DNA of 6,214 nt, taken from positions 1 through 6,214 of the forward strand of contig JAEOSI010000136.1 of NCBI GenBank assembly GCA_016840425.1, read 5' to 3'. Shown one piece after another: positions 2,404 through 6,214 of this stretch. Positions within the stretch are counted from its first letter, which is position 1, and each line of letters opens with the position of its first letter. The DNA comes from Candidatus Wukongarchaeum yapensis (GTDB lineage Archaea; Asgardarchaeota; Wukongarchaeia; Wukongarchaeales; Wukongarchaeaceae). The notes under the pieces are model-generated. The model did no database searches. It was not told the origin of the DNA and saw only the letters and a program-made list of their open reading frames with translations. The position numbers were made by a program, and so were the translations under genes.

Positions 2404-2557
2404 CGGTAGGGTTATCGACCTTCACAAGTTTTTGGACTGCATTAACTCCTTTTTTTTCAACTAGGAAAAGTCCCGCTTGTTTCTTGCCAGAACCAACTAT
2501 ATGTGCCGAAAAATCGGTAAACTATTGATCGACCGTGATGTACCCTTCCGCGGCCAT
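2381..2557 (-). pseudogene. Possible remnant of an unidentified gene (in-frame TAG)
   Basis: MAAEGYITVDQ*FTDFSAHIVGSGKKQAGLFLVEKKGVNAVQKLVKVDNPTVILLQKK*. Protein-like composition, one internal TAG at 2522-2524, no family recognised. Confidence 0.25.
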
Positions 2558-2566
2558 TTTGGGTGA

Positions 2567-3103
2567 ACTGAGAAACAGCTAAACCTTTGCAATGCCACCA
2601 CGAAACTGAGAAGGGAAAAAGAACAACTAATCGCCGAAGAAGCGGAAGAACTGTTAGACGCCTACCCCGAAAAATTTTCCCTCATCCAAAAAAAGAAGCT
2701 AAAGCAATGCATAACAAGCGACGAGCAAACCCTGCTATTCGGCCTAGGGAGAACTAGGCAAGAGTTCGCCTCTCTCACCCCAACTCTTAGACGCCATAAA
2801 TCTTAACCTTGTGAGAAAGATGCTCTCCTAGGATTTAACGATTTTAGGAAAGAAAAAGATCGGAAATGCCTTGAGGAGGTTTGGGAAGGTTGTCAAAGAC
2901 CTCAATCGTGTAAAATTGTTGACCGTTCACGGTGCAAAGGGGGCGGAAGCCGATAACGTGTTCTTTTTCGACAATATTTCGGGGAGGATTAGGGATTCAT
3001 GAAAAACGAAAAGGAGAGAATGGAGGAGAACAGGATTTTTTACGTCGGTGCAACGAGAGCTAAGAAGCAGTTGTTAATTATAAAAAATTATTTTCATACA
3101 TAG
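2567..3103 (+). pseudogene. C-terminal fragment of a superfamily-1 UvrD/Rep/PcrA-like helicase
   Basis: Motif V VKLLTVHGAKGAEADNVFFFD (2910-2972) and, after a -1 shift near 2999, motif VI EENRIFYVGATRAKKQLLII (3023-3082). There is an in-frame TAG at 2829-2831 and a probable further shift near 2770-2790 to an upstream open frame (2567-2806). No Walker A/B part is present. Confidence 0.85.
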
Positions 3104-3186
3104 CGGTATCTTATCGGGACGTAGTTGCATTTCCAACCTAAGTCGGCGAGCTTCGAGGGCATGTGAACGTGGAAGTATAGACGCTT
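3094..3186 (-). pseudogene. Second, short AbrB/MazE/SpoVT-like remnant
   Basis: KRLYFHVHMPSKLADLGWK resembles the upstream KYFYGHLPSKLAE, and LGWK fits the AbrB P..LA..LGW pattern. No start codon before the motif. Confidence 0.4.
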
Positions 3187-3208
3187 TTACGGGTCTAAAA
3201 AATGAAAG

Positions 3209-3374
3209 TCATTCCTCCACTTTTTTGATCATAAGCTTCCCTCCTTCAACGATCTCCACAACCACGTTTCCCCTCTTTAAAGGGGAACTGGCTGCCCTCT
3301 GCGAGTTTTGAGGGTAGATGGCCATAGAAGTATTTGTATTCCTTTCCCCTCTTACGCGGATTTTCGTCTTTGTG
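3209..3374 (-). pseudogene. Frameshifted AbrB/MazE/SpoVT-type (swapped-hairpin) DNA-binding protein
   Basis: Reconstructed TKTKIRVRG/GKEYKYFYGHLPSKLAEGSQFPFKEG/NVVVEIVEGGKLMIKKVEE*, with a -1 shift at the C4 run 3346-3349 and a +1 shift near 3267-3273. The P..LA...FPF..G..V.VEI..GKL.I.K pattern is typical of archaeal AbrB-like proteins. No good start codon. Confidence 0.65.
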
Positions 3375-3398
3375 GGATTACCGTTTGAATACAGTACA

Positions 3399-3422
3399 AA
3401 AGCTTTACTAAAGCTTTATATA
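3399..3422. promoter_or_regulatory. Tandem palindromic operator overlapping a bidirectional TATA box
   Basis: The palindrome AAAGCTTT occurs at 3399-3406 and 3410-3417 (11 bp period; TAAAGCTTTA at 3409-3418 is a 10-bp palindrome). TTTATATA at 3415-3422 lies about 33 nt before ATG 3455, in the gap between the divergent AbrB and RHH2 genes. Confidence 0.55.
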
Positions 3423-3454
3423 TACCGTTGACATTCTTGTTATTAGTGATAACT

Positions 3455-3622
3455 ATGAAAAGCCTGAAAGGGAGAGGCGTTACAATAACGCAGGAACAAG
3501 CCAAGTGGCTTGAAAAGCATCCTGAGATCAACTTGTCGGGATTGCTGAGGAGGACCCTCGATGAGCTGATGAAAAAGGAGACGGAGGAAAAAAATGCGAA
3601 AAAGGAGGAGGAAGAAAGATGA
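3455..3622 (+). CDS. Small RHH (antitoxin/CopG-like) regulator (RHH2), first gene of the C-K cassette
   Basis: MKSLKGRGVTITQEQAKWLEKHPEINLSGLLRRTLDELMKKE: strand (GRGVTIT), helix, then INLS..LR..LDEL, typical of archaeal RHH proteins. ATG 3455 follows AGTGAT and is preferred over TTG 3428. Its stop overlaps the next start (ATGA, 3619-3622). Confidence 0.75.
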   Translation: MKSLKGRGVTITQEQAKWLEKHPEINLSGLLRRTLDELMKKETEEKNAKKEEEER

Positions 3623-4713
3623 AAACAATTAGGGTACACTGGACATATCCCTACATATATTCACGGGCAAGAGGATTTCTAAGCAGGATGCTGTCACCAA
3701 GCCAAGTTGAAAACATCCTCCGAAGCGACATCACCACATTCCTACAAGTATTACTAAACACAAATTACAAAGATGTTGTAGCAAGTTCTTCCCAATCAGA
3801 ATTCTCAATAGTAGACTTTGAACACGCTGCCAGAGAAGAACTGTTAAATAGGCTAGAAACTCTTATCAGGTGTATTCCTAAAGACGCTATGCGCGTAGTA
3901 AACTTGGAGTTCAAAAAATTTGAAGCACGAAACATTAAACAAGCTTTAAGGATACTTCACCTCGTTGAAACTGAAGAAGAAGAAGTCCCAGAAGAGCTAA
4001 AGAAATTTTTCATACCCGTATTCTATCCTCCGGAATATTATGAACGCTTCTTAGATTTAGGGTCAATTGCCCGAGCCATCGAAGTAATAAGGGATACAAG
4101 GTTAAGAAACGCGCTTCTAGGAGTCTACGAAGATTACAAACGTAAGGGAGAATATTCAGTTATGGAAGCTGTAATTGATACGGTTATCTACCGCGACCTA
4201 AGAAATGTGGTAAAATACTGGGGCGTTTGTTCCAAAGCAGGCGATGCAGACAGGTTCCAAATATACCGTTTAGTAAGCGAAGAAATTGACCTAGTAAATA
4301 CGGCCATAGTAATGCGATGTTTCCTTGCTGGTGTGGATTTCACAGACTATTTAATTCCCGCAAACTTTGCCTTAGGCGATGAATTTTGTTCAATACTTGC
4401 CGCTGAAACAGTAACCGAAGTCCTAAACATATTGGCAAGAACCCCCTATAGACACATAGTGGAGCGAATTGGCTCGGTTGATGAGCGTGATGCCTTACAC
4501 GAGTTCGATCTCCTAAGTAAACGGTATATAGTAAAAAGGATCAAAAGCTCGTTATACACGTCTCCATTTTCAGTTATTTGCTTCTACTGTTTCCTAGAAC
4601 TAGCGCTTCAGGAGCTCGAAGACATCATAACAATATTCGTTGGCAAGCTTAGCGGCTTAGATCCTGAAGCCATCAAGTCCAACCTAATAATGCTTGGTTT
4701 AGATGGAAGATGA
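3619..4713 (+). CDS. atpC: A/V-type ATP synthase subunit C (AC39 / V0 subunit d family)
   Basis: 364 aa. N-terminal YPYIYSRARGFLSRML..LLNTNY, then KKFEARNIKQALR, EIDLVNTAIVMR, LARTPY and C-terminal ELALQELEDIITIFVGKLSGL..EAIKSNLI match the vATP-synt_AC39 pattern. It lies next to a proteolipid gene. Confidence 0.9.
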   Translation: MKTIRVHWTYPYIYSRARGFLSRMLSPSQVENILRSDITTFLQVLLNTNYKDVVASSSQSEFSIVDFEHAAREELLNRLETLIRCIPKDAMRVVNLEFKKFEARNIKQALRILHLVETEEEEVPEELKKFFIPVFYPPEYYERFLDLGSIARAIEVIRDTRLRNALLGVYEDYKRKGEYSVMEAVIDTVIYRDLRNVVKYWGVCSKAGDADRFQIYRLVSEEIDLVNTAIVMRCFLAGVDFTDYLIPANFALGDEFCSILAAETVTEVLNILARTPYRHIVERIGSVDERDALHEFDLLSKRYIVKRIKSSLYTSPFSVICFYCFLELALQELEDIITIFVGKLSGLDPEAIKSNLIMLGLDGR

Positions 4714-4768
4714 CCTCTCTCTAAGAAGTAACTAAAAATAAAGAATGAAAAATAAGAGGTTTAAAATT

Positions 4769-5095
4769 ATGAAAACCAAAAACTGGATGAAATTTTTGTT
4801 GTTCCTCTGGTGCGTAGCCCTTCTTTTTCTTATGATCGCATTAGCGGTACACGGCCAAGACGACACAACAGAATTAACAAACCAAGGTGACTTAGCTATT
4901 GGTGCAGCTATAGCTATAGGCCTTGCTGGTATCGGTGCTGGTCTCGGGATGGGTAATGCTTCCTCTTCAGCAATCGGCTCTCTAACAGAAAAACCAGAAG
5001 TTTTCGGTAAATCCATGATCTTCATCGTTATGATGGAAGCTATCGCTATTTACGGTCTAGTCATCGCTATCCTACTCTTCGGCCTCATAGGTTAA
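4769..5095 (+). CDS. atpK: A/V-type ATP synthase proteolipid subunit K (c), single hairpin with an N-terminal hydrophobic presequence
   Basis: AIGAAIAIGLAGIGAGLGMG glycine motif, EKPEVFGK loop and essential Glu in MMEAIAIYGLVIAILL. SD AGAGGT (4755-4760) favours ATG 4769 over 4745 or 4787. Confidence 0.95.
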   Translation: MKTKNWMKFLLFLWCVALLFLMIALAVHGQDDTTELTNQGDLAIGAAIAIGLAGIGAGLGMGNASSSAIGSLTEKPEVFGKSMIFIVMMEAIAIYGLVIAILLFGLIG

Positions 5096-5407
5096 GCAAC
5101 TAAAGATTGTGGGGCTATAACGAATGGAGAAGATACTGGGTTAGGTTTTTCGAACAATAGAGGGAGGAGAAAAGCGTTGATTAAGGAGGTTCCTAAAAGG
5201 ATGACCGTTGTTGAAATCCTCGCGTTCGGAGTGACTGAAGTCGCCAAGAGGCAGCAGAAGAGAAAGATGACATATCCGAAGATGGAAGCTTTCGAAACTT
5301 CCTCTTCAAAAACTTTTTCACCGTCCCCAAGGAATCTTGAACGGTTCAACACAACAACCCCAAATACGCAAAGCTAGGGATGCAACGCTAAGACAGCCGC
5401 CCACCAT
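5092..5407 (-). pseudogene. Small membrane protein, probably frameshifted
   Basis: MVGGCLSVASLALRI (ATG 5407) joins by a +1 shift near 5362 to GVVVLNRSRFLGDGEKVFEEEVSKASIFGYVIFLFCCLLATSVTPNARISTTVILLGTSLINAFLLPLLFEKPNP.... About three hydrophobic segments; no family recognised. It could instead be an intact 86-aa gene starting at GTG 5352. Confidence 0.4.
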
Positions 5408-5458
5408 ACTTAAATATGAAAAAAAGCCGATAGTTTACTCTATGTGTCGGCCTGGAGA

Positions 5459-6214
5459 TCAAATACCTTTGAGCCTGCCGACCCGCACCTTACTGCTCCC
5501 CACCTTCCTAATATACTCCTTCTCGTTCTCTATCACTTTAGAAAGATCCTTTATAGAACTATGATAAAGATTGGTGTATCCGAAAACGACCCCCTCCTTA
5601 TGTCAAGGTACAAGACAACCAAACGCTCGCAAAGATACTCATATCGCGCCCTTTCAACCTTCGTTAAACGCCAAAAATAGTCAAAACCAGTCAACTTGTT
5701 CTGCTGCCTGCTGTTAACAATGATCTTGTCCCTCACCAAGCGAAGAGGCTTAAACACGCGGCTGTCCGTGTTTTCTAGCTTTATTTGCGTTCGAAGAATA
5801 GCCTCTTTCAACAGTGTTTCCTTGTCCTTTTCCCGTTCTATAGCGGTGACAAGGTAGCCCTGTTCAAAAGGAGTCTCATAATCGTGCAACCTGTAACCGC
5901 GGACAAAAACCAAACCCTTCCGCTCCAAGTTACGCACGCTAGCCATAACAGACCTAGGCACCCCAGCCCCTCCCTCACCTCCGTGGTAAAAAACGTGCTG
6001 TCAATGTTCTCATACAAAAACCTCAAACCCTGAAAAATGCCTCTCTGCACAGGCAAAGCTTAAACATAGTAACTGCGCATATTATAAGACACCCCGCCCC
6101 CACCTTAACATCCCTACAACGCTCCCTCAAAGGTTCCTTTGTACGCCAAACCTTGCTCCCTTGATATAAACGGCAAAGAGCGTTCCAATCAGCCACCTTG
6201 CCCCTCCCAGTAAC
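5459..6214 (-). pseudogene. Winged-helix-containing protein gene, multiply disrupted, 5' end outside the window
   Basis: Reconstruction: ...WNALCRLYQGSKVWRTKEPLRERCRDVKVGAG/VSYNMRSYYV*ALPVQRGIFQGLRFLYENIDSTFFTTEVREGLG/VPRSVMASVRNLERKGLVFVRGYRLHDYETPFEQGYLVTAI...LYLDIR/EGVVFGYTNLYHSSIKDLSKVIENEKEYIRKVGSSKVRVGRLKGI*. The -1 shifts are at C-runs 6092-6095, 5961-5964 and 5590-5594, with TAA at 6060-6062. EVREGLG..SVMASVRNLERKGLV is a wHTH recognition helix plus wing. Confidence 0.7.

Follow-up and report, generated by a model that had tools for sequence, protein, structure and literature searches.

Candidatus Wukongarchaeum yapensis, an archaeon of the Asgard group, carries a stator-less pair of A/V-ATPase genes, for the socket subunit C and the ring proteolipid K, in addition to two membrane-sector clusters and a single set of head genes. 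The pair lies on a stretch of DNA, hereafter the window, which is one entire 6.2-kb contig (6,214 nucleotides; JAEOSI010000136.1 of assembly GCA_016840425.1) of a metagenome-assembled genome (MAG). Because the window pair comes without stator or head genes, it would most likely provide an alternative rotor for the single ATPase head, and we regard the full proposal, a rotor isoform that borrows the stator of the native cluster and the only head, as evenly balanced between right and wrong. Rotary ATPases are usually viewed as one operon encoding one machine. Here, in a close archaeal relative of eukaryotes, dispersed single-copy head genes stand against three socket, at least four ring and two stator genes, including a rotor-only pair.

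Three co-oriented genes fill positions 3455-5095 of the window, namely a ribbon-helix-helix (RHH)-like open reading frame (ORF), subunit C/d and subunit K/c (Table 1). Throughout, C'' and K'' denote the window pair, C' and K' the copies in an I'-C'-K' cluster, and unprimed C, K and I the members of a second cluster. A preliminary description of the window had reported only C and K, in that order, intact, co-oriented and without other ATPase genes, and the profile matches agreed with it; searches with Pfam and NCBIfam profiles found no I, E, F, A, B or D homologue in the window. The best homologue of C'' (93% identity) was annotated as Candidatus Hodarchaeota, an Asgard lineage.

ATPase genes in the genome

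Pfam searches of the whole genome (2.16 Mb, 92% complete) recovered three C, two I and a minimum of four K genes, against a single copy each of A, B, D, E and F. The C genes were located on contigs C146, C142 and the window contig, and the I genes on C142 and C146. Two of the K genes, on C146 and C194, encode two-hairpin proteins that are 76% identical to each other, and two encode single-hairpin proteins. The genes for E (C208), F (C177), A (C158), B (C120) and D (C189) were each solitary on their own contig and flanked by unrelated genes, such as the Tat-like genes after A. The copy number of the membrane sector exceeds that of the head, which is an isoform-type organisation, and the head and shaft genes were single-copy in the searched genomes. 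A second atpC and atpK in a complete operon had been named beforehand as support for an accessory module. Further copies of both genes are present elsewhere in the genome, and a complete ATPase operon was found nowhere in it.

An exact overlap of 144 nt joins contigs C142 and C146, and a public 26.8-kb contig confirmed the joined locus, which reads I'-C'-K', one ORF on the opposite strand, and I-K(two-hairpin)-C (G000:C142:16801-20507 followed by G000:C146 in reverse, corresponding to L023:7834-16496). Two unlike membrane-sector clusters lie side by side in this locus, I'-C'-K' with a single-hairpin K that has a leader, and I-K-C with a two-hairpin K that has two carboxylates. By sequence, the I-K-C cluster looks V-type-like, its K matching eukaryotic c''/c best and its C matching eukaryotic d, and its nearest relatives outside the genus were Bathyarchaeota-like. 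The two-hairpin proteolipid gene on the remaining contig (G000:C194:1130-1609, L074) stands alone, without another ATPase gene nearby.

With 277 contigs and 3.3% contamination, the assembly leaves room for an artefact, and a lone C-K pair is the only copy in many Asgard genomes. We nevertheless regard it as barely credible that the window pair results from the fragmentation of an operon holding the only C and K, or from a contig of another strain or species placed in the wrong bin. That these are the only copies, left by plain operon fragmentation, is ruled out by the three C and at least four K genes, and the same three C loci occur in the MAG of a sister species. Mis-binning was rejected on two observations: the housekeeping genes that flank the sister locus are single copy here (86-92% identity, on C72 and C138), and both paralogues co-occur in sequencing runs from independent studies. 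The window was covered by contigs from four runs of four studies, and searches of sequencing runs listed no RNA sample that contains this stretch. The junction from the flank through the RHH-like gene into C'' was bridged by contigs of other studies (X18, 3206-3706; X3, 2551-3532) and recurs in the sister-species MAG. Loose contig ends at 3640 and 5070 read as C'/K', so both paralogues co-occur in those samples.

Origin of the window pair

The window pair closely resembles C'-K', with 81.7% nucleotide identity over 1494 nt and amino acid identities of 76% (C''/C') and 82% (K''/K'), while C'' and the I-K-C cluster's own C share only ~22% identity. In the tree of C subunits, C' and C'' formed one clade (SH-aLRT 100; stem 0.98) nested among Asgard C subunits. 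The nearest named neighbours of C'/C'' were Borrarchaeum, Atabeyarchaeum and Baldrarchaeia. Among 1.84 billion cluster representatives, only the cluster of C'/C'' itself exceeded 50% identity, and the next best reached 29%. Relatives at 50-52% identity retain the I-C-K order. The A and B subunits were nearest to a dispersed A-B pair of a genome of the same order and not to its complete I-K-E-C-F-A-B-D operon. Together with the placement of C'/C'', these affinities indicate that I'-C'-K' and the single head are the native set and that C''-K'' duplicates the native rotor. The genome of the same order carries, in canonical order, I-K-E-C-F-A-B-D (L068; G002:C40, 8993-16896) plus dispersed native genes, and has probably acquired a second ATPase.

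Both species of the genus carry C'', C' and C with the same synteny, and a search for related loci in GTDB representative genomes recovered only the sister species. The GC content of the three-gene unit was 41%, compared to 40% for the I'-C'-K' region and a genome mean of 38%. Judged from identity, tree placement and synteny, C''-K'' is a chromosomal duplicate, specific to this genus, that derives from C'-K' of the native I'-C'-K' cluster. Between the paralogues, dS was ~0.45 (C) and 0.30 (K), values that place the duplication before the split of the two species. The co-transfer of a module, raised in the preliminary description, did not bear out, and horizontal transfer or a mobile element was rejected as the source: C'' groups with C' of the same genus, the flanks hold chromosomal housekeeping genes, and PHROGs profiles matched the helicase remnant only.

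C-K pairs in other Asgard archaea

In Asgard relatives, K directly follows C. Some have I just upstream (I-C-K), and others have a lone C-K pair; several have no I within 1.5-8 kb of C-K, often with E in convergent orientation. Genes A, B, D, E and F are dispersed. Since C-K order and scattered genes are usual in this group, the gene order and split of the window are ordinary, and the euryarchaeal H-I-K-E-C-F-A-B-D operon, against which the pair had first appeared oddly ordered and isolated, is the wrong yardstick. The window pair is like the standard Asgard arrangement in the succession of C and K, in the protein families, in the layout of K (leader, single hairpin, xEAIAIY) and in tree placement. 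It differs in being extra and I-less besides a complete I'-C'-K', in having a genus-specific RHH-like gene on its 5' side, and in belonging to a C'/C'' clade on a long branch with at most 29% identity outside its own cluster.

We surveyed 151 Asgard genomes with completeness of at least 85%, representing 54 genera, and most of these genomes had one C gene. Three inspected genera with two C genes (G110, G107 and G002) were rejected as further cases of orphan pairs because their second C belongs to a complete second operon. Such operons (I-K-E-C-F-A-B-D in G002) share a second C and K with the window; unlike the window pair, which has none of these genes, they include their own I, E, A, B and D.

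An I-less extra C-K pair was found in two places only, the window genus and a Borrarchaeum-like genus. The genome of the latter (G040; 8 contigs, 100% complete) has single A, B and I genes. Besides an I-C-K cluster, it holds a second C-K pair that has no ATPase gene closer than 8 kb. Its two C genes are 37% identical, and the orphan C is sister to the I-linked copies of the lineage (SH-aLRT 98). The orphan pair recurs in constant gene surroundings on at least 13 contigs, which come from several samples. These two independent I-less pairs indicate that C and K were co-duplicated without the stator at least twice, in the second lineage beside one I, one A and one B, and this pattern supports the idea that C plus K form a module. 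The literature searched gave no account of I-less C-K duplicates, or of more than one membrane sector, for Asgard archaea.

Downstream of the Borrarchaeum-like orphan pair (L059, G040:C7:174810-176232, and L063-L066) there always follow two conserved ORFs, one of 105 aa with two predicted transmembrane helices and one of 76 aa, and an FAD/Fer4 oxidoreductase gene. Another Borrarchaeum-like genome has an ATP-synt_ab match split within a 1081-aa frame (G042:C56:22739-25189), which could be an intein-containing A or B subunit.

The socket protein C''

The C'' protein matched PF01992 (vATP-synt_AC39) with 167.6 bits against a cut-off of 29, over residues 15-354 and profile positions 3-338/339. It stayed below the cut-off of the NCBIfam equivalog for archaeal AhaC (TIGR02923; 101.8 bits vs 240.5), and a phmmer search against PDB sequences gave no match. 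As K'' likewise falls under its NCBIfam cut-off, both are divergent members of their families. An AlphaFold2 (AF2) model of C'' was predicted with high confidence (predicted local distance difference test, pLDDT, 90.9; predicted template modelling score, pTM, 0.89). Foldseek placed it with probability 1.00 and TM-scores of 0.65-0.80 beside 1r5z, 1v9m, 8eas_d and 6wlw_Q, and the fold matched the all-helical, three-lobed socket of Thermus subunit C (1r5z) and of the yeast and human Vo d subunits.

Modelling C'' together with D and F, as had been proposed at the outset, placed the D tip in the C'' socket with an ipSAE of 0.86, compared to 0.00 for the best of three controls. Of 78 solved complexes, 51 attained this mark, as did two of 108 mismatched pairs. 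Runs of the D+F+C'' model had at least 97% of contacts in common, and the partner pLDDT was at least 78. Since D-d complexes have already been solved, this result shows a preserved likeness to those complexes, not binding.

The modelled docking socket bears on a further explanation, in which a free d/c-ring of V0 type would act as a membrane pore or scaffold, independent of the A1 head. Head-free roles of V0 have been proposed in eukaryotes, and the window pair has no stator gene of its own. We nevertheless consider such a role highly improbable, as the model of C'' keeps the socket for D, K'' has lost neither the proton-carrying Glu nor any part of the ring motif, and the neighbouring genes suggest no other pathway.

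The ring protein K''

The K'' protein matched PF00137 with 71.7 bits (cut-off 24) and fell short of NCBIfam PRK06251 (81.8 bits, cut-off 101). It comprises a signal-like leader and a single helical hairpin with a Gly-rich helix 1 (GxGxGxG-type), a TEKPE loop and the Glu in MEAIAIYG. These motifs aligned with those of 30 Asgard K subunits, and the layout is that of Asgard K and of the Thermus L precursor. We placed the Na+-ligand positions by the Ilyobacter tartaricus numbering (Q32). In our own alignment, the signature of the Na+-binding c-ring subtype, a Gln or Glu in helix 1 and a Ser or Thr following the helix-2 Glu, was absent from K'', which has Met at the Q32 equivalent and Ala and Ile after the Glu, and likewise from K'. 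The residues at these positions argue against an ion-specificity switch and indicate that K' and K'' are probably both H+-coupled. A change of ion coupling, one of the functions first suggested for the pair, is thus not borne out, as the ion-binding positions of K'' are the same as those of K'.

Differences between K'' and K' that were consistent in both species amounted to three Ala-to-Ser changes near the cytoplasmic loop and a different C-terminus. Other differences in helix 1 involved a few small residues and were inconsistent between the two species.

K'' might also join K' in one heteromeric ring, like that of Acetobacterium woodii or the eukaryotic c/c'/c'' ring, while C'' substitutes for C', with no separate rotor species, so that the pair would serve mainly dosage. 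K' and K'' share 82-92% identity and have the same helix 2, and the high demand for K, at about ten subunits per complex, makes an extra supply plausible. We consider a mixed ring distinctly unlikely, however. K dosage alone would not require duplication of C, yet the socket gene was co-duplicated and retained with K in two independent lineages, and in both species K'' has the three Ala-to-Ser changes by the cytoplasmic loop as fixed differences.

Selection and the case for an alternative rotor

C'', K'' and the RHH-like ORF are intact in both species, and C'' is 93% identical to its sister-species orthologue. Between the two species, the ratio of nonsynonymous to synonymous substitution rates (dN/dS) was 0.48 for C'', 0.36 for K'' and 0.27 for the RHH-like ORF, compared to 0.23 for C', 0.18 for K' and 0.27-0.33 for I, K and C of the second cluster. 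As judged from these ratios, the C''-K'' pair is under purifying selection in the two species. Among substitutions that could be polarised, 14 were derived in C'' and nine in C'. The leader-coding part of the sister-species K'' shares 98% identity with the K' of that species and only 87% with the window K'' (L022:11151-11260 vs L057:9196-9300), which suggests gene conversion between the K paralogues there, or fast divergence of the window copy.

In the mechanism that we favour, the three-gene unit would be transcribed from its own candidate promoter, possibly under the control of the RHH-like protein. K'' would be inserted through its leader and assemble into a proteolipid ring, and C'' would cap this ring and receive the tip of the sole D/F shaft. 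The C''-K'' rotor would then work with I' as its stator and with the only A3B3 head, so that one H+-type A-ATPase would have an alternative rotor isoform. Its expression may be conditional, and the two rotors might differ in ring size or regulation.

Several observations weigh against this mechanism. Constraint on C'' is weaker than on C' (0.48 vs 0.23), and C'' adjoins decayed genes. Helix 2 and the ion-site residues of K'' are identical to those of K', so that no functional difference is visible there, and the apparent conversion of K'' by K' speaks for interchangeability rather than specialisation. Fixed differences between C' and C'' are neither enriched at nor depleted from the modelled D interface (seven of 54, with eight expected; Fisher p = 0.84), and the RHH assignment of the 55-aa protein is weak. 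A second head or a third I gene could have escaped assembly in the MAGs of this and the sister species, whose completeness is 92% and 87%.

Much of this would also fit a redundant duplicate, a segmental copy of C'-K' in a decaying region that persists by drift or dosage and is heading for loss. The dN/dS of C'' is double that of C', its neighbours are pseudogenes, the ion site and helix 2 of K'' are unchanged, K' may have converted K'' in the sister species, and the pair occurs in one genus among the 54 searched. We nevertheless judge it unlikely that the pair is merely such a copy. All three ORFs remain intact in two species despite a dS of ~0.45 since duplication, dN/dS is well under 1, the promoter-like box and the translational coupling have been kept, and the Borrarchaeum-like I-less pair has been retained down to 37% identity. 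A merely drifting duplicate would be a minor genomic curiosity.

If the pair does encode an alternative rotor, ring and socket would be the exchangeable unit of the motor. The pair would offer a simple system, provided by nature, in which to ask how the make-up of the ring determines the ion-to-ATP ratio or enzyme regulation, and would be a concrete prokaryotic analogue of V-ATPase subunit isoforms. A broader idea is that C plus K in some Asgard archaea form a self-contained, duplicable rotor cartridge that arose at least twice and could retune one stator and head in ring size, stability or regulation, foreshadowing in prokaryotes the isoform principle that eukaryotic V-ATPases follow. We put this forward tentatively and think it rather unlikely to hold in full.

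Comparison with known rotor variants

One of the closest known parallels is the isoform system of eukaryotic V-ATPases (a: Vph1/Stv1; d1/d2; c/c'/c''; one V1 head). Both systems have paralogues of rotor or membrane subunits against single head genes, and C'' has the d fold. Unlike the eukaryotic ring proteins with their four-helix form, the window K'' has a single hairpin. As the window duplication is recent and confined to one genus, it is not ancestral to eukaryotes.

The heteromeric rings of Acetobacterium woodii (c1/c2/c3) likewise draw on several proteolipid genes for one enzyme. In engineered c-rings, changes to the Gly motif of helix 1 alter ring size, and a few small residues of this helix distinguish K' from K''. 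Unlike either case, the window has a co-duplicated socket gene, and its helix-1 differences are inconsistent between the two species.

The RHH-like protein and other features of the window

The 55-aa protein encoded upstream of C'' is plausibly an RHH protein. It matched no RHH family above the Pfam cut-off, the sole match being CcdA (15.1 bits vs 22.4, E 0.031), and it had no NCBIfam or PHROGs match. Its AF2 monomer (pLDDT 85.8) has an extended N-terminal strand followed by helices at residues 13-21 and 27-54. The top VIA-align neighbours of the model were mostly RHH antitoxins (MazE-mt9, ParD2, PrpA, KacA) at low Z of 3.6-4.6, and a Foldseek search against the PDB gave nothing at E <= 0.001. 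Atlas feature matches were to RHH families with scores of 0.85-0.88, which we counted as a lead only. Among 5.8 billion proteins, the protein was confined to this genus, in three clusters. On these matches, the earlier RHH label is tentative.

Both the TATA-like box and the sequence around it recur unchanged in the sister species, and a promoter function is suggested by the sequence. An AAGAGG motif stands ~9 nt before the 4769 ATG of K''.

Table 1 Features of the window around the C''-K'' pair
Feature	Position	Strand	Remarks
UvrD-like helicase gene remnant	2465..3103	+	Frameshifted and 5'-truncated (pseudogene); UvrD_C fragments; phrog_1967 DNA helicase
Remnant of an 85-aa ORF family	3209..3415	-	Frameshifted; intact copy at G000:C194:4222-4479
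TATA-like box TTTATATATA	3415..3424	+	Read from the sequence; ~35 nt 5' of the RHH-like ATG; candidate archaeal promoter of the three-gene unit
RHH-like small protein, 55 aa	3455..3622	+	Stop overlaps the C'' start (ATGA); GGAGG directly before the C'' start
C'', paralogous A/V-ATPase subunit C (eukaryotic V0 d), 364 aa	3619..4713	+	PF01992
K'', paralogous proteolipid (c/K), 108 aa	4769..5095	+	PF00137; alternative 5' ATG at 4745 gives 116 aa
Small conserved ORF 3' of K''	5177..5377	+	66 aa; sister-species version 77 aa; putative coding

The flanks of the unit had been described as pseudogenes, which proved right upstream only. There, the UvrD_C fragments lie in different frames (2832-3002, 25.1 bits; 2993-3103, 33.1 bits). 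The remnant of the 85-aa ORF matched no Pfam family; positions 3234-3372 match contig C194 at 86% of nucleotides, and the reading frame of the remnant is split over two frames. The downstream flank, in contrast, holds only small ORFs, including the conserved one at 5177-5377, none of which had a family match.

Further upstream, a conserved 75-aa ORF at 2085-2312 on the minus strand is 95% identical in amino acids to that of the sister species (dN/dS 0.24), without a family match, and adjoins a TIGR00288-type NYN-domain gene at 1235-1735, also on the minus strand. Positions 1-515 of the window overlap the start of another contig of the genome (G000:C72, 1-520) in reverse with 97% identity. According to the synteny of the sister species, these two contigs are neighbours, and the assembly broke at a variable site. 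On the right, the flank has a GC content of 46% against the genome mean of 38%, and the ~650 bp at 5365-6013 are present here and absent from the sister species; they hold a 136-aa ORF (5551-5961, minus strand) of no detectable family.

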